Assembly (NCBI GenBank): GCA_965203355.1
Contig: OZ241889.1
Span: 3,616,001-3,680,000 of the forward strand
DNA from: Candidatus Latescibacterota bacterium
GTDB taxonomy: Bacteria > Latescibacterota > UBA2968 > UBA8231
Length of the DNA: 64,000 nt
Direction: 5' to 3'
Of the stretch, positions 15,776-58,370 are shown one piece after another. The notes under the pieces were generated by a model that was not told the DNA's origin, ran no database searches, and worked only from the letters and a program-made list of their open reading frames with translations. Numbering within the stretch: position 1 is the first letter of the stretch; every line of letters starts with the position of its first letter. The position numbers and the translations under genes were made by a program.

Positions 15776-15785
15776 CGAGGTCCGC

Positions 15786-17345: not shown

Positions 17346-17353
17346 GGTCGTCT

Positions 17354-19147: not shown

Positions 19148-19184
19148 ACCATGTGCGTCCTTCGGCGAGCGGCCCGGCCAACCC

Positions 19185-24980: not shown

Positions 24981-24991
24981 AAGCGCACCTC

Positions 24992-26176
24992 CTAGGCTCT
25001 CCTTGTTCCTATCCCCAAAAACTCCCACGTCTGCCGCGCCACCACCAATTCCTCGTCGGTGCGCAGCACGTAAATGGGCACTCGGCTCGACGCGGCGTGT
25101 AGGCTGCCTTCCCCTTGCACGGCCTCATTTTCAGCCGCATCCATCACCACCCCCAAAAATCCCAAGTCGCGCAGAATTTCGCCGCGCACTACAGCCGAGT
25201 GCTCGCCCATGCCGCCGGTAAAGCTGATCGCGTCTAGCCCACCCATCTCCACCACAAAAGCCCCTAGCCAATCGCGCGCCGCCGTCGCCAGCACGGCTAT
25301 GGCCAAGGTACAGCGCCCGTCGCCGCTTTCCGCGCCCGCCTCAATGTCGCGCATATCGCTGTGCCCGCAAAGCCCCACTAGGCCGCCCTCGTTAGCGCAC
25401 TGCGCCAACACCTCGTCCCACGGTCGGCCCTCGTTGCGCATCACCAAGTCGAGCGCATACGGGTCTAAGTCGCCGATGCGGTTGTTTTGCGGCAACCCCC
25501 CCTGCGGACTTAACCCGTGCGACGCCCCCTGCGAGACCCCGTCCTTTATCGCACACAGCGACGAGGACCCGCCCAAGTGCATGTTGACGTGTTTGAGGTC
25601 AGCGCGGCCGACCCGTTCCGCGACCTTTTCAGCGGCGTAGCGATGGCTAGCCCCGTGGAAGCCGTAGCGCTGGATGCCGTACTGCTCGTACCAAGCGTAG
25701 GGCACCGCGTACATTTTGCGCCGCTGCGGCATGGCACCGTGAAACGCCGTCTCAAAACAGCCGACTCGCCGCGCCTTGGGAGCCGCCCGCGCAAACTGCC
25801 GAATCGCCGCTACATACGCGGGATTGTGCGCCGGGGCTAGCGGATAAAAGTCTTCCATCCGCCCGACCACGTCCTCGTCGAGCTCGACCACCCCAGAAAC
25901 AGCGCGGGCGTGTACCGCCTTAAAACCCACGGCGTCCAAGGCTTCTACCCCGCCCTCGGCCAAACGCGCCAGGGCCTCGTCAATCGCACGGGCGTGGTCG
26001 GGCAGTTCCACGGCCTGCGCAACAACCTCGGCGGCCTCGCCGATCTGGCAGGTGTGGATCGAGCCTGGTCCGCCGATCCGATCCATGCTGCCCCGCGCCA
26101 AAACCACTTCCTCGGGCATGGCAAAGACCTTGTACTTAAACGAGGTGCTGCCGAGATTGGCAACGAGGATTTTCAT
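24992..26176 (-). CDS. ackA: Acetate/propionate kinase family
   Basis: 'MKILVANLGSTSFKY', 'LAPAHNP', 'FETAFH', 'RYGFHGASH', 'HLGGSSS', 'FTGGMGE', 'TDEE'. Confidence 0.85.
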   Translation of the reverse strand: MKILVANLGSTSFKYKVFAMPEEVVLARGSMDRIGGPGSIHTCQIGEAAEVVAQAVELPDHARAIDEALARLAEGGVEALDAVGFKAVHARAVSGVVELDEDVVGRMEDFYPLAPAHNPAYVAAIRQFARAAPKARRVGCFETAFHGAMPQRRKMYAVPYAWYEQYGIQRYGFHGASHRYAAEKVAERVGRADLKHVNMHLGGSSSLCAIKDGVSQGASHGLSPQGGLPQNNRIGDLDPYALDLVMRNEGRPWDEVLAQCANEGGLVGLCGHSDMRDIEAGAESGDGRCTLAIAVLATAARDWLGAFVVEMGGLDAISFTGGMGEHSAVVRGEILRDLGFLGVVMDAAENEAVQGEGSLHAASSRVPIYVLRTDEELVVARQTWEFLGIGTRRA

Positions 26177-29105: not shown

Positions 29106-30169
29106 GACGGCGAGGAACGCTTCGCCCGCTTGCAAGCGGGCCGTAGGCTGTCGATCTGACGTTCATAAAGAAAATGGGACCTCAAACCGAAAATTGAGGT
29201 CCCATTTTCGTAACTCGCGGTGCCGTGGGTGCTACTTGAGCAGCAGCAGCTTGATGTCGACAAACGCTTCGTCCGCCTGCAAGCGGGCCGTAGGCTGTCG
29301 ATCTGACGTTCATACGAAAATGGGACCTCAAACCGAAAATTGAGGTCCCATTTCCGTAACTTGCGGTGTCGCGGGTGCTGCTTGAGCAGCAGCAGCTTGA
29401 TGTCGACAAACGCTTCGTCCGCCTGCAAGCGGGCCGTAGCCTGTCGATCTGACGTTCATAAGAAAATGGGACCCCAGAACATCGGGGTCCCATTTTCGTA
29501 ACTCGCGGTGTCGCGGGGCTACTTGAGCAGCAGCAGCTTGATGTCGACAAACGCTTCGCCCGCTTGCAAGCGGTCCGTAGGCTGTCGATCTGACGTTCAT
29601 AAGAAAATGGGACCCCAGAACATCGGGGTCCCATTTCCGTAACTCGCGGTGTCGCGGGGGCTACTTGAGCAGCAGCAGCTTCTGGACGGCGAGGAAATCG
29701 CCGCCCGCTTGCAAGCGGGCCGTAGCCTGTCGATCTGACGTTCATAAGAAAATGGGACCCCAGAAAACTGAGGTCCCATTTCCGTAACTCGCCAACATCG
29801 TGTCGCGTGTGCTACTTGAGCAGCAACATCTTCTTGACGGCGAGGAACGCTTCGTCCGCTTGCAAGCGGGCCGTAGGCTGTCGATCTGACGTTCATAAGA
29901 AAATGGGACCTCAAACCGAAAATTAAGGTCCCATTTCCGTAACTTGCGGTGTCGCGGGTGCTGCTTGAGCAGCAACATCTTCTTGACGGCGAGGAAATCG
30001 CCGCCCGCTTGCAAGCGGGCCGTAGCCTGTCGATCTGACGTTCATAAGAAAATGGGACCCCAGAAAACTGAGGTCCCATTTCCGTAACTCGCCAACATCG
30101 TGTCGCGTGTGCTACTTGAGCAGCAACATCTTCTTGATGTCGAGGAAATCACCGCCCGCTTGCAAGCGG
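29106..30169. repeat. Tandem array of 7 full and 1 partial ~141-151-bp units: palindrome + variant gene 3' end + terminator hairpin + constant linker
   Basis: TGCAAGCGG recurs at 29131, 29278, 29424, 29565, 29710, 29861, 30010 and 30161; near-invariant CTGTCGATCTGACGTTCATA..AAAATGGGACC; 29701-29836 identical to 30001-30136. Confidence 0.95.
30050..30081 (-). terminator. Terminator hairpin after the surface-protein gene (repeated in each array unit)
   Basis: Minus strand AAAUGGGACCUCAG-UUUU-CUGGGGUCCCAUUU followed by UCUU, ~30 nt after the TAG. Confidence 0.7.
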
Positions 30170-33100
30170 TAGAAATACATTCCCGACGACACGCTCTGGC
30201 CGCTATCGTTGGTCGCGTCCCACTCCACCGCGTAACGACCCGCCGCCTGATGCTCGGCGACCAGCGTCCGCACCGGCTGACCCAACACGTTATACACCGT
30301 CAGCCCCACGTCCGCCGCCTGCGGCAACGCATACTGAATCGTCGTCTGCGGATTGAACGGGTTCGGATAGTTGGCTGCCAGCGAGAACACGGCCGGGCGC
30401 GTCTGTAACGACACCGGCGCGGGCAATGCCAGCCGGTTGAAGCCCAACGCCCGGTCATACGTCTGGCTGTCGGTGACTTCGAGCGTCGTGTGCGCGATCT
30501 CGGTCGTCGGCCGGAAGACTAAGCGCAGCATCAGCTCGCCGTCCGAAACGACGTCGCCGTGAGCGGCTACCGTCAACACGCCCGCTTGGTCGGCCAGCAC
30601 CTGCGGCGTAGCGAATGCGCTGCCGCCCAGCGGCTGATCGGTCCGCGCCTCGACGAAGGTCAACTGGTCGGCGTCATAGGCTACCTGCAAGCCGTAGCCT
30701 TTGACCGCCACGAAGTCGGCTAACCGCACATTAACGACGAACTCTTCTCCCACGCTCGGCAGGGCGGCTGGCGCGTCCAAATACAGTCGCGCGTCCCCAT
30801 TCAGCCCGGTCCGCAACGGCACCGGCTTGCCTGAGACCGCGAGGCTGCGACCGAAATGGTCGGCCAACACGAAGAAATCGTCGAAGTCAATCGTCCCATT
30901 CGGCGCCAGGTCAAACGCCGGATCAAACCCGGCGTCGCCCGCCGTCAAGCCGAAGCGGTCGGCCAACACGAAGAAATCGTCGAACCCAATGCGCCCGTCG
31001 GCGCCGAACAGCCCCAACAGAGCCTGTCCTTGACTATCGGCCACCCGGTTGCGCACGGCCAGCGCGGTATGCTCGACCGAACCGGTCTCGTTGTCTAAGT
31101 CGAAAGCACGCACCTGATAGGTATAATGCACCCCATGCTGCGCCGTCTCATCGACGAAAGACGAACGTCCCGCCTCCACCTCGGCGACCACGGAAAACGC
31201 TTCTGCTCCGACGGCTCGGCGATAGATGCGGTAGCCATGCACACCGACGACCGGCTCGACCGGCGCCGGGCCTAGCGCGCCAGCCACAACCCCTTGCAGC
31301 ACCTGATCCGACGGCGACAGCGTCCACGTCAGCGCGATGCGACCACCCTGATCGTCCGGCGCATCCAACACCTGCAACGCCGACACGGCCAATGGCGCGA
31401 TGTCGTCGGTCGCCCGCACAGCCTCGGCCGTCCAAGTAATCGACGAACTCAGCACACTACTGACGACATTTAGCTTCGGCGCCACGCCGCGAGCGTAAGC
31501 CAATGCTTCCGGCAGCAACGACGCCAGCACCGGCCCTTCCTGCGCGGCATTCCGGCTGGCTTGCAGTGTCTTGGCCATCTGCGCGTAAGGCGCGGTCAGG
31601 TCGTCGGCCTCGACGAACACGGCTTTGGCCATCGTGTGCGTGGTGCGCCCCCCGCGCTCGGCGGCAATGCCCCAGCGCGTCGAGACGTTATCCAGCGTCG
31701 CCACGATGGCGCGGCCCATCGCTACGCCGGGCACGGCATCCACTCGCGCCCACGGCACCATCTCATTTTCCAGCACCGGCAATGCGCGGAAGATGCGATA
31801 GCCGTCCAGCGACTTATGATCGGCCGACAACTCCCAAGACAGCATCACGAAACCGCCTTGGTCGCCTTGGCCGTCTGCACCTTTGTAGTCTTCGGCGACC
31901 AGATTGGTCGGCGCCGACAGCGGCGGCTCCACCACCGCCATGCCCACCGGCAGCGACTGACTCGCGCCGCTGGCATCTACGACCGTGTAAGTCGCGACCG
32001 TCTCGCCCATCACCGTCGGCGTCCCGGAAATCGTCCGGGTGGCCGGGTCAAACGACAGCCCGGCCGGCAGCCCCGACACGCTATACGTCAGCGGCGGAGT
32101 GCCCCCGGAGACGGCCGGCAACGTCAGGTTTGCCGGCACGTTAATGGTGAATTGAATCATGTTGTCGGTGTGCGAATCCGCCGGATTGGCTTTGCCGACT
32201 CCGCCGAACGCACCGAACAACGCACCGAGGTCGACAAAATCCAGCATCGCGTTGACTGTAATCGCGAACGTCAGCGAGACGCTTTTATCGCCAGCCATCG
32301 CCGTGTAGGTGACTTCAACGGCCCCATCGGTCGCCGCGTCTGGTGTGCCCGAAATCGTCCGGGTCGCCGCGTCAAACGACAGCCCGGCCGGTAGCCCCGA
32401 CACGCTGTACATGATGGTTCCCTCGCCGCCCAACGCCACCGGCAGCACCAACGGCGTAATCGCCGTGCCCGCCGTGTAGGTGTGTGCGGCGACCGAAGTG
32501 CCCTCGACAAAAGCCAAGGCGATCATCATGTCCTCATCGCCGTCCATCATGCCGCTGTCCATGTCGGTCAGCACCAGCGTCGCCGAATCCGAAGTCAAGC
32601 CGGGCAGCATCGCGTTGAGGATGATCGTCTCGTCGCCCTCGGCCATACTGTCGGCTGTCGGATTAACCAACAGGCGGGTCGAACCCATGATCGAACCGGC
32701 GGCAATGGTAATTATCGGATCGAACAAGGCCGAATAGTCCGTGTCGCGCATGGCACTGCTCGAAACCTCATCAATCGAGATGGTCGCCGTGGCGTCCTCG
32801 GCCAATGGCTTGCCGTCCAGCGCGGCCATGACCATCACTTCGGTCAATTCTGCCGTCTCGGGGATCGCGCTCGGCATCACCGACAGCACCAGAGACGTGC
32901 TGGCGGTCTCGTCGTCGGAAATGCGGATATCTACTTGACCCCAGCCGCCCGAAGCCGCCGCCCGGATCCCTACATACTTATGACCGGCCGCCGCAGCGTT
33001 GTCGATCGGCGACAGGAAAAGCGTCGTCCAGCCCATCGTCTCGCCGGCCGGAATGGTGACGATCCCCGCCAATGTCGCGGTGTAATCCACGTCGCGGGTG

Positions 33101-35943
33101 GCCATCGCGCCGCTGGCTGGCGGCACAATCGTGAAGCGGACCATCTCGGCGGCCGGAGCCGCGCCCGACAGAGTCGCCGTAACCCGGATTTCGGTCGTCT
33201 CGCCGTTTTCGCGCACGGCCGATTGCGAAGCCATCACACTCGCGACGCCAATCGTCACCGGCGCGGCTTCACCCACCGTGATGGTGAAGGTCCGTCCGCC
33301 GATGTCGCCGTCGCTATCAATCGCCGTATAGACGACCGTGGCCATGCCCGCCAGCGTCGGCGTACCCGAAAGCGTCCGGGTGGCCGCGTCAAACGACAGA
33401 CCCAGCGGCAAGGTCGCCGAAACGCTGTACATCAGCGTTCCTTGGCCGCCCATGGCCGCGGGCAAGACCTCGCTGAACGCCTGACCCACCGTCGCTTCAA
33501 AAGCCAACGCAGCATCGCCAAAGCTCGGCTGTCCCGTGTCCGCTGGCGTTTCGGACGAATCGTCCGTCATCACCGCGTCTTTCAGCGTGATCTTCGCGGT
33601 GCTGACCACGATCTTTTTGTTCTCTTGGTTCTTGAGATTGTCCGTGATCTGCTTCAGCGTGATCGTCTCGTCGTTGTCGGCTTTGCCGTCGTAGATCGGC
33701 GTAACCGTGATCGTCGTCTGGCCAACGACCTCGCCGCGCGGAATCGTCAGCGAGCTAAGCATCGCCGTGTAGTCCAGTTCCCGATCCGCCGAACCGGCCG
33801 CATCCTCATCCAAACCCAGCGCGATGGTCGCATCCGCGTCGAGCACCTTGCCGTCCAACGTGGCGGTCACCGTCACGGTCGTCGCTCCGGCGTCCTCTTT
33901 GATTTCGCCCGGGCTGACCGACAGCGTGATGTTTTTGCTCAGCGTCTCATCGTCGGTAATCGTGAACTTCGCATCCTTCATCTGCGTCGATTCCGAGCCG
34001 ACCTTCGCTTGCACCGTGAACGTCCACGGATTATTCACAGCGCTGTTGTTCGTCGGGGTGACGCGCAGCATGGCCGTGCCTTTGGTGGTGCCGGCCGGGA
34101 TCGTCAAGCCCTCGAGGATCTCCACTTCGTAATTCACGTCGCGCGTCCCCTCACCCGCCGTAATCTGAAAGTCCACCGCCTTAGAGCCGGTTAAAGCCGT
34201 CTCCAATTCAACGTTCATCGCAACGTCAGTCGCCCCGACTTCCTCGCGTATCGACTTCGGACTCAGCGTAAAATTCTTGATCCGCGCCACTGCAACATCC
34301 TCGACCGTGACGATGCCGGAGTTGATCGTAAGCGGAATGACAAAAGTGTCCACATACTTTAGCGTTCTGTGTGTGTCCGGGTCTATTGCCCGCTTCTTAA
34401 CGAAAGTATCCTCGACGTCGGAATCGCCGTTAAAGTCGATGCTAAAACCCCAATTTGTTTCCCCGATTCCGTCTTCCGAGGTCTTGATGTCCGCGCACAC
34501 TTGTAGCTTCGTGTCCGTTGCATCAAATAAGCAGAGACCTACCTCGGATAACATCTTACCCTCGGGCACCTTATACGTATCCAAATAATCGCCATCCCTG
34601 AAAAAGTCGATCCCCAAGTCGGCTTCTGCCAACACGGTCCCCGCAGGTGCGAAGTCGGAATCTTTATAATTATTAGCACCATAACCTGTAGCCCTATCGG
34701 CTTTTATCCCAACATACCCGTCACCATCGGCGTCGGTTCCAACATCCCCATCGCCGTTTAAGTCTATGCCCATTGTCTTGACGCTGTAAGTCTGGTTGTT
34801 TGTGGAGATACTGAATGGTGTATATGTGACATGCTCTGGCGCATTAGACTGCACTGGCAGCATAAAACCATCGTCCTCAAAGGTACCATCGAGATTAAGG
34901 TCGATCCGGACCCGCCGCCCCTCGCTGTTCTGCCGTTTTAACTTCACGACCAGCTTATTGTCACTGGGCTTTAGCACGATCTTGCCCGCCTTATTTTTCG
35001 GAGCGAGGGTGAACGTAGTCGTCGCGTCGAACTTACGCTGCGGAACGGTCAGCTTCCCCAAGCCGCTAAGCGAGTAATGCACATCGCGCGTCAACGTATC
35101 GCTGGTAGCCCCTTTGCCCTCGACAGGAGCCAGTCGGGTTTCAATGGCTTGGGTGGTTTGGGTCTTAAACGCGCGGCCATTCAACGTCCCCGTCAATTCA
35201 ATCGGAGTCGCATCCGCCTGCTTGCTGAGCTTGGACGGCGCAAAAGAAAGGTCAAGCGCACTCGGCAACTGATCATCGTCGATGATCTCCACATACATTC
35301 TCGAATACGTTCTAATAATGTGTTCTTGTACGTCAAAGCGTATAACAGGATGCTCGCCGCCAATGTATTCGGCCGAACTTTTGAAACCAATTTTATAGTT
35401 ACCCCCTTCAAACCGAAACACGACCGGGATATTAACTCCACCGTCTAAATCCTCTTTATCGCCAGGTCGCCTAAAGTTGGCCTGCCTCCTTATACTCGCA
35501 GCCATATCATTAAAAGCATTCAGACTCGCAGCCTGCCGCTCATAGTGATTGAAGACTTTTTTGGAGAAATCGCACTCGGTGGCTGTGGCTGAGCAAGGCC
35601 CGACTCGCTTATTGTTTATCGGGGTTATGGTCAGCGTTCCTGTCGTCTTTTTGTCGCCCTTCTTAACCACGAGATTGGGGGTAGATAAGGTGAAGAACTC
35701 ACCGTAATACTTTGAGTAGGGACGCTCCGCATCGAAAAGCATCCCAACGGGAATATCTTCGGTCGCCGCCGTCCCCCCCTTTGTTTCTAAGGTCACCGTA
35801 ATATCTTGTGCCCCTCCGTCCTCGCGGATCAAAACCCGGTCAAAGGAGACGAATAGGCTATCTTGGGCCGCGGCCTCCCCGGCCAACAGCAAACAAGGCA
35901 AAAAAGCCAAACGCCGCATCGCATAAATAAATGAACGTACCAT
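30112..35943 (-). CDS. 1943-aa secreted surface protein/adhesin: Calx-beta-like repeats, He_PIG Ig domains, FN3-like, EF-hand/dockerin-like, cohesin-like and FlgD/T9SS-type C-terminal domain
   Basis: AAGGGAGG RBS; signal peptide ending AAAQ; repeated 'TVTATL..G...RDVDY...TIP'; 3x 'LP.GLSFD.ATRT.SGTP'; 2x 'FDDFFVLAD.FG'; 'NYPNPFNP...WDATNDSG..VSSGMYFYRLQAG...KKMLLLK'. Confidence 0.88.
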   Translation of the reverse strand: MVRSFIYAMRRLAFLPCLLLAGEAAAQDSLFVSFDRVLIREDGGAQDITVTLETKGGTAATEDIPVGMLFDAERPYSKYYGEFFTLSTPNLVVKKGDKKTTGTLTITPINNKRVGPCSATATECDFSKKVFNHYERQAASLNAFNDMAASIRRQANFRRPGDKEDLDGGVNIPVVFRFEGGNYKIGFKSSAEYIGGEHPVIRFDVQEHIIRTYSRMYVEIIDDDQLPSALDLSFAPSKLSKQADATPIELTGTLNGRAFKTQTTQAIETRLAPVEGKGATSDTLTRDVHYSLSGLGKLTVPQRKFDATTTFTLAPKNKAGKIVLKPSDNKLVVKLKRQNSEGRRVRIDLNLDGTFEDDGFMLPVQSNAPEHVTYTPFSISTNNQTYSVKTMGIDLNGDGDVGTDADGDGYVGIKADRATGYGANNYKDSDFAPAGTVLAEADLGIDFFRDGDYLDTYKVPEGKMLSEVGLCLFDATDTKLQVCADIKTSEDGIGETNWGFSIDFNGDSDVEDTFVKKRAIDPDTHRTLKYVDTFVIPLTINSGIVTVEDVAVARIKNFTLSPKSIREEVGATDVAMNVELETALTGSKAVDFQITAGEGTRDVNYEVEILEGLTIPAGTTKGTAMLRVTPTNNSAVNNPWTFTVQAKVGSESTQMKDAKFTITDDETLSKNITLSVSPGEIKEDAGATTVTVTATLDGKVLDADATIALGLDEDAAGSADRELDYTAMLSSLTIPRGEVVGQTTITVTPIYDGKADNDETITLKQITDNLKNQENKKIVVSTAKITLKDAVMTDDSSETPADTGQPSFGDAALAFEATVGQAFSEVLPAAMGGQGTLMYSVSATLPLGLSFDAATRTLSGTPTLAGMATVVYTAIDSDGDIGGRTFTITVGEAAPVTIGVASVMASQSAVRENGETTEIRVTATLSGAAPAAEMVRFTIVPPASGAMATRDVDYTATLAGIVTIPAGETMGWTTLFLSPIDNAAAAGHKYVGIRAAASGGWGQVDIRISDDETASTSLVLSVMPSAIPETAELTEVMVMAALDGKPLAEDATATISIDEVSSSAMRDTDYSALFDPIITIAAGSIMGSTRLLVNPTADSMAEGDETIILNAMLPGLTSDSATLVLTDMDSGMMDGDEDMMIALAFVEGTSVAAHTYTAGTAITPLVLPVALGGEGTIMYSVSGLPAGLSFDAATRTISGTPDAATDGAVEVTYTAMAGDKSVSLTFAITVNAMLDFVDLGALFGAFGGVGKANPADSHTDNMIQFTINVPANLTLPAVSGGTPPLTYSVSGLPAGLSFDPATRTISGTPTVMGETVATYTVVDASGASQSLPVGMAVVEPPLSAPTNLVAEDYKGADGQGDQGGFVMLSWELSADHKSLDGYRIFRALPVLENEMVPWARVDAVPGVAMGRAIVATLDNVSTRWGIAAERGGRTTHTMAKAVFVEADDLTAPYAQMAKTLQASRNAAQEGPVLASLLPEALAYARGVAPKLNVVSSVLSSSITWTAEAVRATDDIAPLAVSALQVLDAPDDQGGRIALTWTLSPSDQVLQGVVAGALGPAPVEPVVGVHGYRIYRRAVGAEAFSVVAEVEAGRSSFVDETAQHGVHYTYQVRAFDLDNETGSVEHTALAVRNRVADSQGQALLGLFGADGRIGFDDFFVLADRFGLTAGDAGFDPAFDLAPNGTIDFDDFFVLADHFGRSLAVSGKPVPLRTGLNGDARLYLDAPAALPSVGEEFVVNVRLADFVAVKGYGLQVAYDADQLTFVEARTDQPLGGSAFATPQVLADQAGVLTVAAHGDVVSDGELMLRLVFRPTTEIAHTTLEVTDSQTYDRALGFNRLALPAPVSLQTRPAVFSLAANYPNPFNPQTTIQYALPQAADVGLTVYNVLGQPVRTLVAEHQAAGRYAVEWDATNDSGQSVSSGMYFYRLQAGGDFLDIKKMLLLK

Positions 35944-47865: not shown

Positions 47866-48140
47866 ATGCCGTGGTCGTGCCCGTCGGCCCATTCAATGCG
47901 AATGCCGTAGCGCCCAACGTAGCTAATCCCTCGCACCTCGGCTGTGGCCGACGCGGCCTCGGGCGGCAAGAGCGTCAATCCGCCCGCATTCGCGTCGCGC
48001 AATTCCCGACAGTGAGCGCACGGACACGCGCGCCGCAAGCCCGCCAAATCGCAGCGGCTCTCGCGACCATTGCTCCACGCAATGATCAACTCGCCGGCCC
48101 GGTCATCCACGGCAATGTCCCGCGGCTTTGCCTTGTTCAA
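47823..48140 (-). CDS. DUF971 / gamma-butyrobetaine hydroxylase N-terminal-like protein
   Basis: 'LRRACPCAHC', 'VGRYGIRIEWADGHDHGIYTF'. Confidence 0.85.
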   Translation of the reverse strand: MNKAKPRDIAVDDRAGELIIAWSNGRESRCDLAGLRRACPCAHCRELRDANAGGLTLLPPEAASATAEVRGISYVGRYGIRIEWADGHDHGIYTFEFFRALAAGG

Positions 48141-49456
48141 CGCGGCGCTCCCACCACCTTAGCACTCAGCTCGTAGGGCGCGGCCGCGGTGATCTCCACT
48201 TCGACGAAAGAACCCACCGGAGGCATGCCTTCCGAGATTACCACCTGGCCGTCGATTTCCGGGGCGTCGCGCTCCATCCGCCCATGGCACACTTCCCCTA
48301 CGTGTGCATCGATCAAGACCTGCTGCCGCGTGCCGACGAGCGCGTCGTTTTTCTCCGTGCCCACGCGCTCCTGTAGTTGCGTCAGGCGGCTGTAGCGCTC
48401 CTGCTTGATTTCTTCGCCGACCGCGTCCCCGAGCGCACACGCCGCCGTCCCATCTTCCGGTGAGTAGAGAAAGCCGGTCGCATAGTCAAAGCGCGTCTCC
48501 GCGACAAACGCGAGTAGCTCCTCAAAATCGTCCTCGGTTTCTCCGGGAAAGCCAACGATGAACGTCGAGCGCAGCCCAACCCCCGGCAACCGCGCCCGCA
48601 GCCATGCCAGCAAATCGAGCGTCTTTTGGCGCGTCGTCGCCCGCTTCATGCGCTTGAGCACCGGGTCGGCGATGTGTTGCAGCGGCATGTCGATGTACCG
48701 GCACATCTTGTCGCACGTGGCGTAGAAGTCGATCAGTTCCTCGGTCCAAAACGCCGGATACGTGTACATCAAGCGCATCCACTCAATGCCCTCGACCGCG
48801 GCGAGTGCCTGCAAAAGGCGCACGAGCTGGGGCCGGCCGTAGAGATCGGCTCCGTAGCGCACCGAGTCCTGCGAAACCAACACCAACTCCCGCACCCCCT
48901 CGGCCGCGAGCCGCTCGGCCTCGGCCACAAGCTGTTCGATGGGCTCGCTCGCGTGTCGCCCGCGAATGGCCGGGATGGCGCAAAAGGCGCATTGGTGATC
49001 GCAGCCGTCCGATATGCGTAGATACGCCCAGTGCTTGGGCGTCAGCGAAGTCCGCGGCAAGCCAGCCCAGTACTGGGGCCGCTGGACGCCCAACACATCG
49101 TCGACGTGGCGGACGATGGCGGCTTCGTCGGCGATCGTCAGCAGCTTGTCGGCTTCCACCAACTCCTGCGCCAACTCTTCGTAGTAGCGCGTCGCTAGAC
49201 ACCCGGTGACAATCAACCCCTCGCACGGCCCTTCTTGCTTGAGCCGATGCGCGTCCATAATCGCGGCCAGGGATTCTTCTTTGGCTGACTCGATAAAGCC
49301 GCAGGTATTGACCACCACCACGTCCGCTTCTTCTGGCACGTCCGTTAGCTGATAGGCGTGGCCCTGCAAAAGCCCCAGCATCCGCTCGGAATCGACCGTG
49401 TTTTTCGGACACCCCAAGCTGACTAGGTGTACTTTGTGGGGCTGGTTTTCGCTCAT
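48137..49456 (-). CDS. rimO: Ribosomal protein S12 methylthiotransferase
   Basis: 'SLGCPKNTVDSE', 'NTCGFIESAKEES', radical SAM 'CDHQCAFC', 'YIDMPLQH', 'FIVGFPGETE', TRAM 'DAPEIDG'. Confidence 0.95.
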   Translation of the reverse strand: MSENQPHKVHLVSLGCPKNTVDSERMLGLLQGHAYQLTDVPEEADVVVVNTCGFIESAKEESLAAIMDAHRLKQEGPCEGLIVTGCLATRYYEELAQELVEADKLLTIADEAAIVRHVDDVLGVQRPQYWAGLPRTSLTPKHWAYLRISDGCDHQCAFCAIPAIRGRHASEPIEQLVAEAERLAAEGVRELVLVSQDSVRYGADLYGRPQLVRLLQALAAVEGIEWMRLMYTYPAFWTEELIDFYATCDKMCRYIDMPLQHIADPVLKRMKRATTRQKTLDLLAWLRARLPGVGLRSTFIVGFPGETEDDFEELLAFVAETRFDYATGFLYSPEDGTAACALGDAVGEEIKQERYSRLTQLQERVGTEKNDALVGTRQQVLIDAHVGEVCHGRMERDAPEIDGQVVISEGMPPVGSFVEVEITAAAPYELSAKVVGAPR

Positions 49457-49477: not shown

Positions 49478-52264
49478 TTAAAGTTGACCACCATGACGAA
49501 TCAACAACTCTGCCGTTTCACTAGCTCCTTTTTCTTTTGCATAATGGAGCGGCTTATGGCCGCCAAAAAAACCAGTGCTGTCTTCTGCGTTGACATTTGC
49601 GCCCTGTTTCAGGAGGAATTCAGCCGTCTCGTACGCATTCTCCAACGCCGCAAAATGAAGCGGGGTAACGCCATTTTCGGTCTTGGCGTGGACGTCGGCA
49701 CCGTTTTGGAGCAACACGGCAGCTACCTCCCGAGCATTTGCCGACGCCGCAGCACACAGCGGGGTATAGCCATATTTGGCATTGGCGTCGACGTAGGCAC
49801 CGTTTTGGAGCAACACGGCAGCCGTCTCGTGCGCATTCTCTAACGCCGCAGTATGAAGAGGGGTATAGCCATCTTTGTCCCTGGCGTGGACGTCGGCACC
49901 GTTTTGGAGCAACACGGCAGCTACCTCCCGAGCATTTGCCGACGCCGCAGCATGAAGCGGGGTAACGAGCGGAGTAACGCCATCTTCAGTACTGGCGTGG
50001 ACATCTACGCCCCGTTTCAAGAGGAATTCAACCGTCTCCCGCGCATTTGCCGACGCCGCAGTATGAAGCGGGGTATAGCCATCTTTGTCCCTGGCGTGGA
50101 CGTCGGCACCGTTTTGGAGCAACACGGCAACCGTCTCCCGCGCATTCGCCAACGCCGCAGCATGAAGCGGGGTAACGCCATCTTCAGGCTTGGCGTGGAT
50201 GTCGGTGCCCCGTTTCAGGAGGAATTCAGCCATCTCCCGCGCATTTGCCGACGCCGCAGCATGAAGCGGGGTATAGCCATTTTCGGCCTTGGCGTGGACG
50301 TCGGCACCACTTTGGAGCAAAACAGTAGCCGTCTCTCTCGCATTCTCCAACGCTGCAAAATGAAGCGGGGTAACGCCATATTCGGACTTGGCGTAAACGT
50401 CGGCACCACTTTGGAGCAAAACGGCAACCGTCTCCCGCGCATTCACCAACGCTGCAAAATGAAGCGGGGTATCGCCATATTCGGACTTGGCGTGGACGTC
50501 GGCACCACTTTGGAGCAACACGGCAGCCGTCTCCCGCGCATTCAACGCCGCAGCATGAAGCGGGGTAACGCCATCTTTGCCCTTGGCGTGAACGTCGGCA
50601 CCGTTTTGGAGCAACACGGCAGCCATCTCCCGCGCATTCGCCAACGCCGCAGCATGAAGCGGGGTATCGCCATCTTTGTCCTTGGCGTGGACGTCGGCAC
50701 CGTTTTGGAGCAACACAACAGCCGTCTCGTGCGCATTCGCAAACGCCGCAACATGAAGCGGGGTACAATCTTTTAGCTCACGATCATCCTCTCCCATTTT
50801 ATCGAGAATTGTCGTAAGGTGCGGCGAGATACTGGCGTGTAGTGTGGCCTTCGCGTCAATGTCGGAATTCTGGTCCAGCAGGGATTGAGCGAGTGCAGGC
50901 AGATTCAGACACGCAGCGTGATGTAGGTCGGTCACGCCTTTATTGTATATGATATCTGGAGATGGCTTGCGACCCACCTTCGCAACAAACTCTCTTTCCT
51001 CGCTCTCTTCTGCCGCTTCCCGCACCGTTGGTTCCGACTTTGCAAAATTCAGCGACTGGAAAATTTCATCTATTGCGCTGAGCATCTTTTGCCGGATCTG
51101 TACCATCTGTTTCTTGATGGGCGCGAAATCTCTCTTTTGCGAGTCTATGAGCTTGCTGATTTTTTCTCCTAAAACGTCCGCATCGTCTGGTTTTAGCTCA
51201 GAAAGATGAAAGTCGATATCTTTGAGTTCGTTTGTCATCCACTTGGCCGTTCTTTCGTCTTTGAGAATGGCATTCACATACATCTCAAAGACGCCCTCAA
51301 TCTCCTGCTTCAAGTCTGTGTTCGCTTGTTTGGGCTGGTTTTGCTCTCGGAAAAAGTCCGCCAACGACATCTCGTCATATGAGAATTCCTCACGGCGGCG
51401 AGAACTATACGCGCTGATTCCAAGAGGCTCGAAATCCACGTCGGCAAGCGTATTCTTCACCTCGTTCAGTATGTCCTCCAATTCACTGAGGTGCTTGATG
51501 TCCGCCTTGTTCAGAACTACGTAAAACGGTAAAGACCTCAATTCCAAACCCTCCAGAAACTCCAAATCTTCATCGGGGACCGTACCAGCAGAATCCAGCC
51601 CAATCATCCAGATGAGCGCATCCCGATCTTTGAGAAAATCAGCCGCCGTAGTCCGGTCTTCACTGCGTCCTCCCGGATTGTAGCCCGGCGTATCAATCAA
51701 GCAGATGTTGTCAAACAAGCTGTCGCGCAAAGGAACCTCCACTGTAATGGAGGGCATGATGTACTTGAGATCGAAGGGAAAGGTGTCGATGAAACTGTGG
51801 GATAGTTGCGAATATAGTGCCGGGTCGATATCCACCGTATTGCCGGTGCGGGAAAAACCCTTGATCGCCATCTCCGAATTGGCAATAACAAAAGAAGGAA
51901 TGGCCGTGGCCGGTTGGACTCGCTCCGGCAGCAAATGATCATATCCCTCGATAAAACTGTTGACAAACGCCGACTTGCCACTGCTGAATCCACCACCAAT
52001 GGCAATGGATCGCTTGGCGGAAAGATGAGGAAAGACTACCAGTTCTTTCAACCGATTGGCCAGTCTTTCCAAACGCTGCACCGCGGCCGCTTCCTCGGCT
52101 AACGACGACTCCGCATCGGCAAATTCCCGAAACTCTCCGTTCAAGAGGTCCTCAAACTTCTTGAACTCTACGTGTTCATTGGATTTAGCCGTCAGCAGGT
52201 CGGAAACTAACTTGTATTTCTTCTGCAAATCCTCATACTCTAAACGCAACCCACTTTCATCCAT
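49478..52264 (-). CDS. Dynamin-like GTPase fused to about 14 C-terminal ankyrin repeats
   Basis: G1 GGFSSGKS, G3 DTPG, G4 NKAD, coiled coil, then G.TPLH.AA..N..E....LL..GAD repeats. Confidence 0.85.
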   Translation of the reverse strand: MDESGLRLEYEDLQKKYKLVSDLLTAKSNEHVEFKKFEDLLNGEFREFADAESSLAEEAAAVQRLERLANRLKELVVFPHLSAKRSIAIGGGFSSGKSAFVNSFIEGYDHLLPERVQPATAIPSFVIANSEMAIKGFSRTGNTVDIDPALYSQLSHSFIDTFPFDLKYIMPSITVEVPLRDSLFDNICLIDTPGYNPGGRSEDRTTAADFLKDRDALIWMIGLDSAGTVPDEDLEFLEGLELRSLPFYVVLNKADIKHLSELEDILNEVKNTLADVDFEPLGISAYSSRRREEFSYDEMSLADFFREQNQPKQANTDLKQEIEGVFEMYVNAILKDERTAKWMTNELKDIDFHLSELKPDDADVLGEKISKLIDSQKRDFAPIKKQMVQIRQKMLSAIDEIFQSLNFAKSEPTVREAAEESEEREFVAKVGRKPSPDIIYNKGVTDLHHAACLNLPALAQSLLDQNSDIDAKATLHASISPHLTTILDKMGEDDRELKDCTPLHVAAFANAHETAVVLLQNGADVHAKDKDGDTPLHAAALANAREMAAVLLQNGADVHAKGKDGVTPLHAAALNARETAAVLLQSGADVHAKSEYGDTPLHFAALVNARETVAVLLQSGADVYAKSEYGVTPLHFAALENARETATVLLQSGADVHAKAENGYTPLHAAASANAREMAEFLLKRGTDIHAKPEDGVTPLHAAALANARETVAVLLQNGADVHARDKDGYTPLHTAASANARETVEFLLKRGVDVHASTEDGVTPLVTPLHAAASANAREVAAVLLQNGADVHARDKDGYTPLHTAALENAHETAAVLLQNGAYVDANAKYGYTPLCAAASANAREVAAVLLQNGADVHAKTENGVTPLHFAALENAYETAEFLLKQGANVNAEDSTGFFGGHKPLHYAKEKGASETAELLIRHGGQL
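49500..50770 (-). repeat. Intragenic ~99-bp tandem repeats encoding ankyrin units
   Basis: Recurring 'atgaagcggggta..gccat' and 'gacgtcggcaccgttttggagcaacacggca' at ~96-111-bp spacing. Confidence 0.9.
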
Positions 52265-54319
52265 GATCAATCCCTTTCAATTCTTCCCTAATGCGGGCGA
52301 TTCGACCCAACTCCATTGTCTTGTTCTTAATGGAGCCCTCGAGAGAGGCGAGGTCCTTGTTGAACTTTTCCAGCAGCCGATCAGCTAACCGAACTCCATA
52401 CATCGCCTTGGTGAGATCATCAATGTACCCCCTCACTTTCTTGCGAAGCTCTCTACAAGAATCCTTAGAATAGCTGCATGCCTCATTAAAAAATGAGGTC
52501 GCCTCCTCACCTTTCAATACACCCCGAGGCGTCAGATCTTTGGGCAATTGGATATTATATTTGAATGGTGGAATGGATATGGAATTAACGGCATTTTTTA
52601 TAATCTCTCGAACTCTCCATGCTTCTACATCCTCATCACCCAATTCTTGCCGTAAAATTTTAGTTAGTTCTTTGTTGAGTTCATTCCGCCACAGGTCCAT
52701 TTGGGCTTCTGTTTTCTCTACAATATCCTCTACCATTTTTTCAACAGACTCCGTCAATATCCCAACGACAGCATTCGTGCGGATGGTCTCAACAGATCTC
52801 GTCTTATTCTCCTTAAATATGATACCTGTTTGAAAATTTTCATATATTTCGCTTTTCTCTTCAGCGATACCCTCTCGTACCGACCGATCTCGACTTTCTA
52901 GCTCCTTGTTAAGTTCACGTCTCAGGTTTTCTTTAACCTGTTTAACCGATTCTTCATGCGCCTCGCCAATTAGAGAAGCCGTCTTTTCCAAGGATTCGAT
53001 CAAACTGTCACGCCGCTTCTTAAAACCCTCAATTTCTATACTCTCAATTTGGGTATGCCGCTCATTCGCATACTTGAGTAAGTCGTTTTTCAACTTGTGT
53101 AGAGACTGGAGTTTTGCGCCGCTGTACTCTGTTTGTCTGTCCTTGATGATGATGTCCTTTTTTTCGCGCACACCAGCGACGATTTCCCGAATGTACGCTA
53201 TGTTGGACAGCTTCTCCAGATTGATACACGATAATTCCGCATCTTCAGCGGAGAAATAGTTTCGATACTCAAACAACAAATTGTCCCAAACATGCTGCAT
53301 TCCCTCATCCCACGCATCTTTTTTATCAAAGCTCTGCTTCAGGCTTTCGCAAATGCCCGCAGAGTGAATGATTCTACCTTGCTGAAGTAACTGATCATAG
53401 GTATTGCCCACTTCGGGATTGCGCTCCTTCAAATCCTCAATAATCATCTCCAAATGCCTTCCGAGCACATCCGTAGTGAGGCGGTCCAATACGCGGTCCA
53501 AGTCCCCGTTGCTTTCATCCTTCAAATTGCCATAAAGCTGCGTATCGACTTGCGACGCTATCACGTATAGCTCCCGGATGCTTTCCTGCCCAGTAATGCG
53601 ATCCATCAAATTCAAATCTGCCGAACTCATAAACTGACCGGCCGGACTGACGATCAACACCACATCGCATTGACTCAAATGCTGTCGGGTTCGCGCCTCA
53701 CGCGACTTTACCGGATCGTTAATACCGGGCGTATCCACAATTTCTATATCCCGCAGATTCTCTTGCGGTAGCCAAATGTTGACACTTTTGGTAACGGGCA
53801 TGTAACGGCCGGTCGCGCCGACGTAATCATCCAATTGGCGACGCAAATCGGCAAGATCGGAAAACTTGAGAACGGTCTTTTTCTCGATCTCGCTGAGGTC
53901 GAGCCCAGACTTTTCGATTTTATCGTATTGTTCATAGGCGGCAACCAAGGCGTCGTTGCCATCCTTCATCGCCCGTTTCACCCTACTGCTCGCCCGCTCT
54001 TCTGGGGACCTGCGCGAGCGTATCTCTTCTGCTTGTTCCTCGGCTAAAAAGTCTTTATAAAGCCGATCTGCTCGTGTCTTATATGCCCTGTACTGGTTCT
54101 GGATATGTCTCAAGTCCTCTTGGGTAAAAAACTCTACTTCTGCCGATAGACTCTCCCCGTAAGAAAGCGTCGTCAAGGCCGCTGTCATGGGAGTTGCCGC
54201 CTTGGGCAGAATGCTTTCCCCTGCAAAGAGCAGGGCGTTTAGCAGCGAGGATTTTCCAGATTTGACCCGTCCCACAATACCGATCCTGAGTAGGCGGTTT
54301 TCATCTTCAATAGCCGTTA

Positions 54320-55247
54320 GAAGCGTTTTTAAAATTCATTTTTTTTAGCGATTCGCTTGAGTATCAAATGGATCATCGCGATTTGGATAAAGGCTTCACT
54401 ATTGCAAGTTAGGTGCTCGTAGTCTTTGGCATGGACTCGATAGTTGAGTAGCCAAGCAAACGTTCGTTCGACGACCCAACGACGAGGGAGCACCTCAAAG
54501 CCGGAGCCTTGTCTGGATACGACTTCAAGGTCTATTTTGTGCGTTTTTTTTTTGAGCCACCCATTGCCTAAGCGGCGCGCCTTTATAGGCTCCATCCACC
54601 CACAGCTTGCGTAACCTTTGTACCGTGGGTGAAAAGTAGGTTTTCAACAAGGTCTTCAAGCCGTCGGCATCCGAGGTCGAAGCAGCGGTCACCACACACT
54701 CAATCAGACGACCCTCGGTGTCGACCAACAGATGGCGTTTGCGTCCTTTAACCTTCTTGCCGGCATCGTATCCAACACTTTTACCTTGGGTGGCCGTGGT
54801 AACGCTCTGCGCGTCCACGATCCCCGCCGACGGGGTCGGTGCCCGGCCGTGCTGGATGCGATCCTGCCTGGTTAGGGCGTCGAGTATCTGTGGCCAAACC
54901 CCTTGTTGACGCCAGCGATTGAAGTAGCCATACACCGTTTGCCAAGGCCCAAAACACCGCGGCAGCATCGGCCAAGGACACCCGGTTTTAGCCCGATACA
55001 GTAGACCATTCATCACCAAACGCACCGCCCGAGGTGGCCGACCCGGACCCCCTTGACGCCAACGGCCCCGAGGCAGCAGACGAGCAAGTAACAGCCATTG
55101 TGCATCGGTCAAATCCGTCGCATATTCTACACCGGGCGTACCCATATATAACCCCCCTTTCAGGCTTTGTGATGAAACCTAAAGGTCGGTTCATGGGTAC
55201 GTCCTTTCAAGGGAAAATCAACTAAAAGTGAATTTTAAAAAGGCTTC
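54320..55247 (-). mobile_element. IS5-family insertion sequence (IS1031-like), 928 bp
   Basis: 19-bp TIRs GAAGC(G/C)TTTTTAAAATTCA; 3-bp TTA target duplication at 54317-54319 and 55248-55250; DDE transposase inside. Confidence 0.92.
54329..55145 (-). CDS. IS5-family transposase split into two frames at an A10 run
   Basis: '[10 protein letters not shown]', '[20 protein letters not shown]', 'IVDAQSV', '[21 protein letters not shown]', 'VDGAY'; second frame '[13 protein letters not shown]'. Confidence 0.9.
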
Positions 55248-55470
55248 TTAGGTTTGCTTGCAATTCCTTCGCCGCCGGGATGCCGTGTTCTTGGGCGAGG
55301 TTTGCCGCCTCATCGCCGAGAAAATCGCCATAGCGATCTATGACCTGATCTAGATTGTCTCTGTATGCGACGATACCACGAGCTTGCATGGCGTTGTCTC
55401 CCTTTGGGTCAAGTAGGTTAAAGTTTTAGAGAGAACGGCGATTTAGTAAAATCTGCTAAATCAATCCTCG

Positions 55471-57198
55471 TCAGACTCTTGCAGAGCGCGTAAAGATTGT
55501 CTCGCTTGCCAGCGAGCGGATAGTTTCCCTAACGCCCGTGAGTTGGTCAATGGTTTGCTCAATATCTCGCTGCGCGTCCTTTTTGATTTGCTCAGCAGCG
55601 ACGATTTCATCGCGCTTTGACTTAATGTGCAAATCAATGGCCCCGGCTTGCTCGTTAATCAAGACTCTCACCTGCTCCTCGAAATACCCGGGCAGTTCGC
55701 TTGCCAGCCTATTTTTAACTTCTGGAATAATCCGCCCAACTAGGTCCTCACGCAGCTTCCTCTTTGCTCTCTCTTTTTGCAGAAGGGCAATGAGTTCTGG
55801 TAAGAATACAATGACAACTTCCACTGCCACTGCCACCACGTTAGTAGTAATGGCAAGCAGGACGGTAAGACCCCGCATTTTTCGCATCCCATTTATTATT
55901 TTACCCATAGCTCCCGAAAGCGTTTTGGTCGCCAACGGACCAAACATAGAAGAGTTTACAAATCTATCCATGCCTGTTTCGTCGCCTACATAGGACGACA
56001 AAGTACGCGCAGTACTCTCAATATGATCGCTTAGTTCTTTGACAATCTCGGCGTTCAAGTCGATAAGTTTGGCTTTTACGTGACGCAAAACTGAGGAGCG
56101 GACGATTTCCCCCATCTGTTGCTGTACAGCATCTGTTCCCTCCTGTGAGATGGCCGTGTTGACCAACGCATCTACCTGAGCACTCAAGTCGCCGCCCACC
56201 TTATCCACAATAGAGCGGACGGAGTTTGTGGAATACTTCGCACGAATATCCTGAACTAGCTGATCCTTTTTCCGCTCTAACTCCCTCAGTCCCTCAGCAA
56301 GCTGGTCTATGGCCTCCTGATTCTCGCTTTCGCTCCTTCTCAGCGAGCTAATCCAAGTGTTCAAGCTGGCGTCGAGCGCGTAGAAATCGCCCTCCAAGCG
56401 AGGCCGCCAAAGCCGATCAAAAAGAGCCTCTGGATCAATGGCCTTGAGCATCTTGCCCAGTGCCGCCCCGCCCTCTTTGCCCACCGACACGACCGAATCG
56501 GCAAAATCAAAATCGTCCTTCAGTCGCTCCTCGACATTCTGCACAATGGTCTCTACCTCCGAAGCCGAGCGCAAATTCGCCTTGCTCACAAATACGGAAA
56601 ACCCCTTGTCAAACTCGTGAAATTCAGCCAACTGCCGCAGGGTCGATTGGGTGACGGTCCCTTCCTCCACGCTGATCAGGACCGCGTAATGACTCCCGCG
56701 GGCAAGATATGTCAAAATGGCTTGGTGATGTAAGTCCAGCGGCGAGTCAAATCCGGGCATATCCACGAGCACCAGCGGCAGCACTCCTTGCAATTGGGAA
56801 CGGTCGAGAAAGCCCTTTACATATTTATACTGGCGCGCCTTCCCTTTGATCTCGCGGATGTCGCGGATGTCGTAGCGATCCGTCTCCTCATTGGCCTTAA
56901 CCGCCGAAATGTACTCCTCGTGGGAATAGCGCAACTCGGTCGCCAACGCAGTCTCCGGCGTGGTGTTCACCGGCAACAAATCCTGCTCCAAAAAGGAGTT
57001 GATCAACGTGCTCTTACCGGCACTAAACGCGCCGACCACCGGAACGATCAATTCCGCCGCCCGAATCTCCTGCTCCAACTCCTCTACGGAGCGGACATTC
57101 TGTTCCCATTCTTCAGCAAATCCCGAAGATTGGACCTTGTTTAGTTCGGCCTGTACTTCGCCTAAATAGTTGCAAAACGCCTGCTGCGTATTAAGCAT
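55471..57198 (-). CDS. Dynamin-like GTPase with C-terminal hydrophobic segment and coiled coil
   Basis: GGAGA RBS before MLNTQQ; G1 GAFSAGKST, 'PETALATEL', G3 DMPG, 'SKAN'; hydrophobic 'VLLAITTNVVAVAVEVVIVFLPELI'. Confidence 0.85.
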   Translation of the reverse strand: MLNTQQAFCNYLGEVQAELNKVQSSGFAEEWEQNVRSVEELEQEIRAAELIVPVVGAFSAGKSTLINSFLEQDLLPVNTTPETALATELRYSHEEYISAVKANEETDRYDIRDIREIKGKARQYKYVKGFLDRSQLQGVLPLVLVDMPGFDSPLDLHHQAILTYLARGSHYAVLISVEEGTVTQSTLRQLAEFHEFDKGFSVFVSKANLRSASEVETIVQNVEERLKDDFDFADSVVSVGKEGGAALGKMLKAIDPEALFDRLWRPRLEGDFYALDASLNTWISSLRRSESENQEAIDQLAEGLRELERKKDQLVQDIRAKYSTNSVRSIVDKVGGDLSAQVDALVNTAISQEGTDAVQQQMGEIVRSSVLRHVKAKLIDLNAEIVKELSDHIESTARTLSSYVGDETGMDRFVNSSMFGPLATKTLSGAMGKIINGMRKMRGLTVLLAITTNVVAVAVEVVIVFLPELIALLQKERAKRKLREDLVGRIIPEVKNRLASELPGYFEEQVRVLINEQAGAIDLHIKSKRDEIVAAEQIKKDAQRDIEQTIDQLTGVRETIRSLASETIFTRSARV

Positions 57199-57257: not shown

Positions 57258-58370
57258 TCAAGCGAGGTTGCGCCCGGAGCACTGCTGCACATACTCAATG
57301 GCCGCGCACACGGTCGCATCGCTTATGCCCTCCACGACCTCCACCGCCCCAATCCGCCGCCCCAGCACAAACCGCAGCCGCCCTTCCACCCGCTTCTTGT
57401 CGGCCTTGGCACAGGCCAAAATCCGCTCGGCCTCCACCTCGGCCAGCCCCCCGGGCACCCCCAACCGCTCCAGCAACGCATCCTGCCGCTGCCGTTCCGC
57501 TTCGGGCCAAAACCCCTCGCGGCAGGCGATTTCGCCCGCGGCGATCAAGCCCAAAATTATCGCTTCCCCGTGTCGGTAGCGGCCGTAGTCCGTGGCGGCT
57601 TCAATCGCGTGCCCAATGGTGTGCCCGTAATTGAGAATCGCCCGCAAGCCCTGCTCCTTCTCGTCGGCGGCCACTACTTCGGCCTTGATCTCGACATTGC
57701 GGCCAATGAGCCAGTCCAAAGTCTCTGGCGCCAACGCCATATCCACGACCTCCTCCAAGTGTTCTTCCAAAAAGGCGAACAGCGCGGCGTCGCGAATCAG
57801 CCCGTGTTTGACCACCTCGGCCAGGCCCGCAACCCGCTCGCGCCGCGGCAGCGAGTGCAGTGCGTTGGTGTCGGCCAAAACCAAGCGCGGCTGGTGAAAG
57901 GTGCCGATCAGGTTTTTGCCCAGCGCGTGGTTGACCCCGGTCTTGCCGCCAATACTCGAATCAACCTGCGCGACGATGGTAGTAGGTACCTGCACGTAGG
58001 GCACGCCGCGCAAATAAGTGGAAGCCACAAAGCCCGCCACGTCGCCGACCACGCCCCCGCCGAGGGCCGCGACCCAAGCCCCACGGTCGAACTCGGCCTC
58101 GATCAGCTGCGTGAAAATGCCCTCGGCCCCGAGCAAGTTCTTAGCCTCCTCGCCCCCAGCACAGACGATCTCTAACACCTCAAACCCAGCCGCACGCAAG
58201 CTCTCCCCGGCTGGTTGCAGGTAGTGCGCCGCTACGATCTCGTCGGACACCAAGGCAACCTGCCGACCCAAGGCCAAATCGCGGCAGCGCAGCCCCAATT
58301 CCCCTAAAATATCGTGGCCGACGAAAATGGGATATGCAGCCCCCGGGATGGCTAAGTCAATCCTTGGCAT
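57258..58370 (-). CDS. aroB: 3-dehydroquinate synthase
   Basis: 'GGEEAKN', 'ALGGGVVGDVAGF', 'PTTIVAQVDSSIGGKTGVN', 'LNYGHTIGHAIE'. Confidence 0.96.
   Translation of the reverse strand: MPRIDLAIPGAAYPIFVGHDILGELGLRCRDLALGRQVALVSDEIVAAHYLQPAGESLRAAGFEVLEIVCAGGEEAKNLLGAEGIFTQLIEAEFDRGAWVAALGGGVVGDVAGFVASTYLRGVPYVQVPTTIVAQVDSSIGGKTGVNHALGKNLIGTFHQPRLVLADTNALHSLPRRERVAGLAEVVKHGLIRDAALFAFLEEHLEEVVDMALAPETLDWLIGRNVEIKAEVVAADEKEQGLRAILNYGHTIGHAIEAATDYGRYRHGEAIILGLIAAGEIACREGFWPEAERQRQDALLERLGVPGGLAEVEAERILACAKADKKRVEGRLRFVLGRRIGAVEVVEGISDATVCAAIEYVQQCSGRNLA

Follow-up and report, generated by a model that had tools for sequence, protein, structure and literature searches.

A mobile operon of three dynamin-like GTPases with exchangeable tails on its third subunit: a candidate phage-defence system

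We analysed a stretch of 64,000 nucleotides (nt) from a Candidatus Latescibacterota genome (GCA_965203355.1, contig OZ241889.1, positions 3,616,001-3,680,000 of the forward strand; hereafter the window), which carries three co-directional genes for dynamin-like GTPases (genes 1, 2, and 3) between aroB and rimO. This trio is a conserved mobile operon found across many phyla; its genes are closely coupled, its distribution is patchy, and in the window it has been inserted as an island. On the reading that we favour, with a probability of roughly 0.55, the operon encodes a three-subunit dynamin-like machine that would act at the inner membrane to defend the cell against phages or mobile elements of other kinds; the variable tail of the gene 3 product is a likely optional recognition module.

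Conservation, spread, and insertion of the operon

Homologues of gene 3 formed 2340 clusters at E≤0.001. A genome scan with gene 3 (GTDB) confirmed 237 relatives, and the best 80 loci were kept. All three genes were present at 65 of the 80 loci, 64 of them identified by open reading frame (ORF) search and one (L003) by tblastn, and the loci without a complete trio were mostly short contigs. Over 60 loci, the median intergenic gaps were 7.5 nt between genes 1 and 2 and -4 nt between genes 2 and 3. The record titles of trio loci included Pseudomonas, Neisseria, Burkholderia, Campylobacter/Helicobacter, spirochaetes, Fibrobacter, Fervidobacterium, Fusobacteriaceae, and planctomycetes. Six of 75 genomes carried the trio in the host's order (the order of genome G001), two of the six being distant matches, and incomplete genomes can hide a trio from this count. 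Relatives were also found on 13 plasmid records, and one allele occurred in 5 of 5426 E. coli genomes, plasmid-borne in all five. No gene 3 match was found in phage genomes at E≤1e-8.

The features of the window locus are as follows (aa, amino acids; IS, insertion sequence; pLDDT, predicted local distance difference test).

55471..57198, minus strand: gene 1, 575-aa LeoA/Cj-DLP2-like dynamin-like protein (Pfam Dynamin_N 6e-19; weak PADLOC LeoA/LeoBC matches; hydropathy)
55728..55836, minus strand: predicted lipid-binding paddle of gene 1, about residues 455-490 (sequence; hydropathy peak at the same place in orthologues)
55248..55389, minus strand: 5' piece of gene 2, ATG at 55389, 47 codons (89% identity to the N-terminus of the intact gene 2 of locus L001)
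54320..55247, minus strand: IS5-family element, 928 bp, with 19-bp inverted repeats and a TAA target duplication (NCBIfam transpos_IS5_3; element ends)
54525-55145 and 54329-54595, minus strand: IS5 transposase, two overlapping frames
52257..54319, minus strand: 3' piece of gene 2 (Pfam Dynamin_N; comparison with intact orthologues)
51020..52264, minus strand: gene 3 core, about 415 aa, GTPase and helical neck, predicted to lack trunk and paddle (model pLDDT 87.7; Foldseek)
49478..50944, minus strand: gene 3 tail, 14 ankyrin repeats (Pfam Ank_2 1.6e-115; repeat listing; fusion in 33 orthologues)
57258..58370, minus strand: aroB, upstream flank
48137..49456, minus strand: rimO, downstream flank

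A preliminary description of this DNA, made without database searches, had reported three dynamin-type GTPase genes running in one direction between aroB and rimO in an AT-richer block, with genes 2 and 3 overlapping and gene 3 ending in about 14 ankyrin repeats, and these observations were borne out. The flanking genes are presumably aroB and rimO, as named there and as recognised from their sequences. On the minus strand, the motifs were GAFSAGKS/DMPG in gene 1, GRVKSGKS/DTPG in gene 2, and GGFSSGKS/DTPG/NKAD in gene 3 (ATG 52264 to 49478, 928 aa), and all three products passed the Pfam Dynamin_N cut-off. The GC content of the block was 0.51, as against 0.63 and 0.65 in its flanks; the stop of gene 2 and the start of gene 3 overlapped by 8 nt; and the array consisted of one TDLH-type, 12 TPLH-type, and one terminal KPLH repeat. 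Because aroB directly abuts rimO in a relative (G005), which therefore represents the empty site, the three-gene block is an inserted island. Locus L001 showed the same aroB-1-2-3-rimO order with an intact gene 2 (733 aa), and the rimO-side flank was shared by L001, L002, and L104.

The true start of gene 2 is ATG 55389, and the IS5-family element interrupts the gene after codon 47, so that the 672-aa ORF is only its 3' part. The element was multi-copy in public runs (about 8x depth and other insertion sites), and no joint bypassing it was listed in the contigs of four public runs, although contigs drop rare alleles. Because the element cuts gene 2 ahead of its P-loop, and because a restart at GTG 54275 would drop the N-terminal helices and the first GTPase strand, the dynamin system of this strain is probably inactive.

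Several loci depart from the common arrangement. On E. coli plasmid NZ_CP148279.1 (L102:9995-12484), a tail-less trio is followed by an overlapping 829-aa gene annotated as 'CFI-box-CTERM domain-containing'; a status as dead gene 3 paralogue was considered for it and not accepted (N-terminal match of only 47 columns, probability 1.2%). This plasmid offers a form of the operon that already resides in a laboratory host species. On the P. aeruginosa megaplasmid pPAG5 (L101:5238-6949), the trio lies beside integrases and gene 1 is annotated as two pieces. Variants with two copies of gene 1 or of gene 3, or with a second GTPase joined to gene 3, were found at L005:4037-7613, L066:9503-12752, and L058:9830-12484. 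More distant dynamin-like clusters occurred at G001:C1:1106692-1109216 and 3051830-3057289, at G017:C8:20808-26327, and at L107 and L108, the gene 3 relatives of the last two having long repetitive N-terminal extensions in place of tails.

Subunit architecture and the tails of gene 3

Hydropathy analysis of 59 loci with three intact genes revealed a 19-residue peak of at least 1.8 in gene 1 at 55 loci, in gene 2 at none, and in gene 3 at two. The standard deviation of protein length over these loci was 12 aa for genes 1 and 2 and 136 aa for gene 3, and the G1 K-S and DxxG positions were invariant or nearly so across the three proteins. From hydropathy, gene 1 is predicted to encode the only subunit with a hydrophobic membrane paddle. 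The model of the L001 gene 2 product (pLDDT 86.7) showed a GTPase with a helical insertion, about 51 residues ahead of the GTPase, a 100-residue stalk helix, and a beta-hairpin tip, with SynDLP, BDLP, and Cj-DLP1 as top fold matches; gene 2 is thus predicted to encode a long stalk with a beta-hairpin tip and no hydrophobic paddle. The gene 3 core model (pLDDT 87.7) contained a GTPase and flanking helices only. Since its top Foldseek matches were engineered truncated mitofusin-1 (template-modelling (TM) score about 0.4), the prediction for gene 3 is a natural mini-dynamin without a trunk, comprising a GTPase and neck only. The closest solved sequences for the trio were Cj-DLP1/2 and BDLP. A complex prediction for gene 2 (residues 1-583) with the gene 3 core, both from L001, gave a score of 0.07 (mark 0.32) and counts neither way.

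The preliminary description had named mis-assembly as a possible origin of the GTPase-ankyrin fusion. This origin is ruled out by two lines of evidence: the 33 closest homologues (79-93% core identity, among the best 120 of 337 matches) all had ankyrin families, and a 3.66-kb contig from a public run spanned 50687-54345, across the GTPase-ankyrin junction, with zero differences. Since the window itself may derive from that run, independent evidence for the fusion comes from the orthologues. No listed contig spanned the complete array, so the exact number of repeats is that of the window only. The closest named genomes were Ca. Latescibacterota, with 86% and 82% gene 3 identity. A second ankyrin-tailed gene 3 protein (P0082, 49% identity) indicates that the window genome probably has a second copy; two gene 3 copies were also present in G002 and G082.

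Scans of 54 selected homologues and nine locus proteins identified tails of many kinds: ankyrin, HhH, IF2_N, SWIB, FGE-sulfatase, Sel1/TPR, HEAT, WG, MORN, zinc ribbon, biotin-lipoyl, EF-Tu domain II, and a second GTPase. On a core tree of 187 tips (of 323, thinned for redundancy and tail-less sequences, with tail labels assigned via motifs, Pfam, and in some cases by eye), 11 tail classes required 29 parsimony changes, as compared with 84.5 in shuffles, which indicates that gene 3 tails follow lineage and yet arose many times. The survey for C-terminal domain swapping proposed in the preliminary description therefore had a positive outcome, with tails of at least 11 classes exchanged between lineages. 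Ankyrin tails were confined to one clade (support 1.0), mainly Latescibacterota. Besides Latescibacterota, its named members were two proteins labelled Gemmatimonadota and one short contig labelled Actinomycetota, and two of its sub-clades had HhH tails in place of ankyrin.

In the spirochaete loci L059, L063, L067, L079, and L080, gene 3 ended in a zinc ribbon (5/5). Downstream genes at L059, L063, L079, and L080 started with a similar ribbon, fused to leucine-rich repeat (LRR), Sel1 plus ankyrin, EF-Tu-like GTPase, or unknown domains, and like-with-like adaptor coupling through these ribbons is possible. At L080, a stand-alone ankyrin gene abutted gene 3.

Defence context and competing explanations

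A WYL-family gene lay directly upstream of gene 1, on the same strand and with a gap of at most 650 bp, at 11 of the 55 loci with 1.5 kb of flank; six of the 11 had helped to build the profile after Pfam identification, and the other five were Pfam-confirmed. The profile gave no match in 20 control regions. About half of BrxR-type WYL genes accompany defence systems, according to PMC9122601.

We compared 17 loci with 17 paired 10-kb regions lying 60 kb away, using PADLOC profiles at E≤1e-30 and leaving out the pairs of L036, L049, and L072. Any match was found at 9/17 loci and 1/17 controls; after removal of AAA, TnpB, and transporter matches, the counts were 6/17 and 1/17 (one-sided p=0.043), and the strict count by protein was 12/120 against 1/130. 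The strict matches comprised GmrSD-like, type I, IIG, and III restriction-modification (RM), DrmD-like, reverse transcriptase, AbiEii, SspH, and GajB proteins, and L042 and L044 were flanked by BREX and type I RM. When the three genes of the window locus were checked, as the preliminary description had proposed, all three passed Dynamin_N and PADLOC gave weak Leo matches. Upstream of gene 1 at L013 and L015-L017 lies a divergent Pseudomonas operon encoding a PLD-like protein and an SNF2-type helicase, which PADLOC did not recognise at E≤1e-30 and which may be a further defence module.

If the trio is a defence machine, protein 1 would anchor in the membrane via its predicted paddle, protein 2 would serve as a long stalked scaffold without a paddle, and protein 3 would be a trunk-less GTPase-plus-neck subunit. 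By analogy with Cj-DLP1/2, the subunits would co-assemble and activate one another through GTPase-domain contacts. The tail would bind an invader protein, or be a decoy for a host protein targeted by invaders, and its binding would tune the place or time of complex assembly; within the model, this optional receptor or decoy function has the weakest support. GTP-driven assembly would remodel the membrane and so delay lysis or block phage development, both the remodelling and the anti-phage outcome being extrapolated from Cj-DLP1/2 and Eleos. Eleos and DynA offer an anti-phage precedent for dynamins, as presented in part of 10.1101/2022.05.11.491447, and passages of PMC7159879 describe FGS domains and repeat arrays as invader-binding modules of other conflict systems.

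Several observations weigh against this reading. The support for a defence role is indirect, and the defence enrichment is modest (35% in the strict count, as compared with 60% for Eleos by another method), the test set is small and includes six Pseudomonas loci, and the controls 60 kb away were mostly core genome, a contrast that any accessory gene could give. Many loci, the window's included, lie among housekeeping genes without a defence neighbour; the window locus also has no WYL gene, and none was found at the seven Latescibacterota loci (0/7). A tail of at least 80 aa occurred in only 45 of 146 representatives and 27 of 80 loci, about two thirds being tail-less, and the ankyrin tail is therefore not the defining feature of gene 3. 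Repeat variation was concentrated at positions that, following DARPin design, form the ankyrin binding face, as expected in any ankyrin array. At these positions, the ratio of non-synonymous to synonymous polymorphism (pN/pS) was 0.99 for the window array and 1.07-3.96 for the arrays of three relatives; drawn from few, non-independent repeats (9/12, 7/12, 4/7, and 5/10 kept), these values do not establish positive selection on the binding face. The earlier proposal of a dynamin system with a repeat-based sensor or adaptor for phage or host proteins therefore stands in part: the dynamin-like operon and island, the swapping of tails, and the defence context in relatives agree with it, whereas the ankyrin tail is not defining and occurs in one clade only, and the window copy is broken by the IS.

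The strongest competing explanation, possible though unlikely in our estimate, assigns the trio an accessory role in membrane stress, repair, or vesicle formation, as a machine like Cj-DLP1/2, IniA, or LeoA, and regards the ankyrin array as a lineage-typical accretion on a tolerant C-terminus without a sensing role. It accords with the nearest solved sequences, with tail types that follow host lineage, with the prevalence of tail-less gene 3 homologues, with the position of the window locus between housekeeping genes, and with the ankyrin-rich character of all five Latescibacterota genomes tested (7-74 Ank_2 matches each). Against it stand the repeated occurrence of WYL regulators and defence neighbours and the multiple gains of unrelated binding domains at one and the same site. 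In addition, the ankyrin tail persists in 33 orthologues despite turnover of its repeat number (3-16) and its sequence (61% identity versus 84% for the core, 32 of 33 compared).

A wider version of the defence reading, which we regard as doubtful, is that of a widespread dynamin-triad immune system in which the stalk-less third subunit is a plug-in receptor that retargets one membrane-remodelling GTPase engine. The tails would then be binders (ankyrin, Sel1/TPR, HEAT, WG, MORN, or FGE) or host-domain bait (EF-Tu domain II, the IF2 N-terminus, HhH, or biotin-lipoyl), and the spirochaete zinc ribbons would link the engine to separate sensor proteins. Such a receptor can be likened to the integrated sensors and decoys of plant nucleotide-binding leucine-rich repeat receptors (NLRs).

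Improbable in our judgement is the proposal that the bacterium, as a probable sponge symbiont, uses the ankyrin tail as a eukaryote-like module that acts on host cells after delivery by vesicles made by the trio. Sponge-associated Latescibacterota are described as rich in ankyrin and other eukaryote-like proteins in a section of PMC12993501, and LeoAB is described as promoting vesicle release in a section of PMC4159319. However, the L001 gene 3 orthologue has no hydrophobic leader or membrane segment (maximum hydropathy 1.13), sister proteins of the same clade have HhH/IF2_N tails of cytoplasmic appearance, and many free-living bacteria carry the trio. Very improbable for this locus, and already unlikely for the family, is a decaying relic whose long array grew by slippage after loss of operon function: the IS5 element in gene 2, the IS or breaks at L003, L032, L033, L059, and L064, and the absence of gene 1 from this site in L002 are in line with decay, but L001 is fully intact at the same site with a similar array, the repeat framework positions have a pN/pS of 0.53-0.74, and window genes 1 and 3 are open, with 91% and 86% identity to L001.

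The question of how bacterial dynamins sense and stop phage gives the trio its wider relevance; a passage of 10.1101/2022.05.11.491447 calls the mechanism of Eleos unknown. If the trio is a defence system, its division into a membrane anchor, a scaffold, and a naturally occurring mini-dynamin whose tail can be exchanged would make it possible, by deleting or swapping tails, to tell recognition apart from action on the membrane. Many phyla, as well as plasmids of E. coli and Pseudomonas, would then carry an unannotated system that PADLOC 2.0 misses, and it would be suggested that phage, not the animal host, is what some ankyrin proteins of sponge-type symbionts face. More than the ankyrin array, it is the family that makes the finding notable, as a triad of wide distribution in which a trunk-less subunit exchanges its tail.

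Elsewhere in the window, on the minus strand, 22912-25028 encodes an AAA_15/AAA_21 ABC-type ATPase (447 aa), whose gene overlaps the next one, of 258 aa and without a Pfam match, a layout like that of an ATPase-partner defence or toxin-antitoxin pair. A cluster of FG-GAP/ASPIC-UnbV and TPR proteins occupies 11908-22046 (minus strand), one member apparently lying in two ORFs (11908-14580), and 30112-35943 (minus strand) encodes a 1943-aa Ig-repeat protein with a FlgD-Ig C-terminus.

Comparison with known systems

The preliminary description had not recognised the fusion among described systems, and full-text literature searches likewise found no description of the trio or of a bacterial dynamin-ankyrin fusion; supplements and most subscription journals were outside this scope, so an earlier candidate listing is possible, and the PADLOC profile set dates from 2023. 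A passage of PMC8935386 mentions an island of H. pylori that contains LeoA together with three dynamin-like genes, and part of PMC12922286 concerns an RdcA-like operon. The trio would operate in the manner of paired bacterial dynamin operons, but it is not Eleos, DynA, or the Cj pair.

Like Eleos, the trio is a mobile operon in which dynamin-like GTPases stand in tandem, with a modest excess of defence genes near the loci sampled, and gene 1 is LeoA-like in size and has the predicted paddle. Passages of 10.1101/2022.05.11.491447 describe Eleos as two full-length dynamin-like proteins, the first of which may be split, with about 60% of systems in defence islands, both P-loops needed, and protection against jumbo phages. 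In contrast, the trio has three complete GTPase domains on separate P-loop GTPases (65/80 loci), not two, LeoB and LeoC being halves of one protein in Eleos; a paddle is absent from gene 2, and gene 3, with its variable tails, has a predicted trunk-less form. Membership of Eleos was rejected: gene 1 scored 21.2 bits on DLP_LeoA_gen against a cut-off of 325, and the PADLOC Leo matches were only partial, the best reaching 52.5 bits among 15 proteins from five loci.

Cj-DLP1/DLP2 (PDB 5OWV; described in part of PMC6104087) was the best PDB sequence match for all three proteins, although a remote one (E 1e-5 to 1e-13), and gene 2 equals Cj-DLP1 in length. In passages of the same paper (PMC6104087), tetramerisation triggers GTPase activity and lipid binding. 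The Cj system is a pair rather than a triad and has no mini-dynamin, and membership was rejected on the three genes of the trio and on the 119-aa N-terminal assembly domain of DLP1, as compared with about 50 residues in gene 2. The third gene of the Cj operon encodes an HcpA-like protein, which we take to be of the Sel1-repeat family and which echoes the Sel1 tails of gene 3.

B. subtilis DynA shares the hetero-type dynamin-like GTPase and, as cited in a passage of 10.1101/2022.05.11.491447, delays phage lysis. It differs as a fused, two-headed housekeeping protein, and membership was rejected on NCBIfam DynmDynABac scores of 21-25 bits against a cut-off of 1600. The DO-GTPase/GAP1 conflict systems, in the portions of PMC7159879 and PMC8195603 that cover them, similarly vary the attached modules (FGS, repeat, or zinc-ribbon) around a GTPase core that stays constant. 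They belong to another GTPase family, the word 'dynamin' being absent from the main texts of PMC7159879 and PMC8195603; the trio was not assigned to them, its Walker B being DTPG/DMPG without the Walker B glutamate, and no GAP1-named Pfam family was found among 225 neighbours at E≤1e-12. The engineered minimal mitofusin (GTPase and HD1; PDB 5YEW and 5GOM) was the top fold match of the gene 3 core model, and it is a laboratory truncation, whereas gene 3 would represent a natural reduced form.

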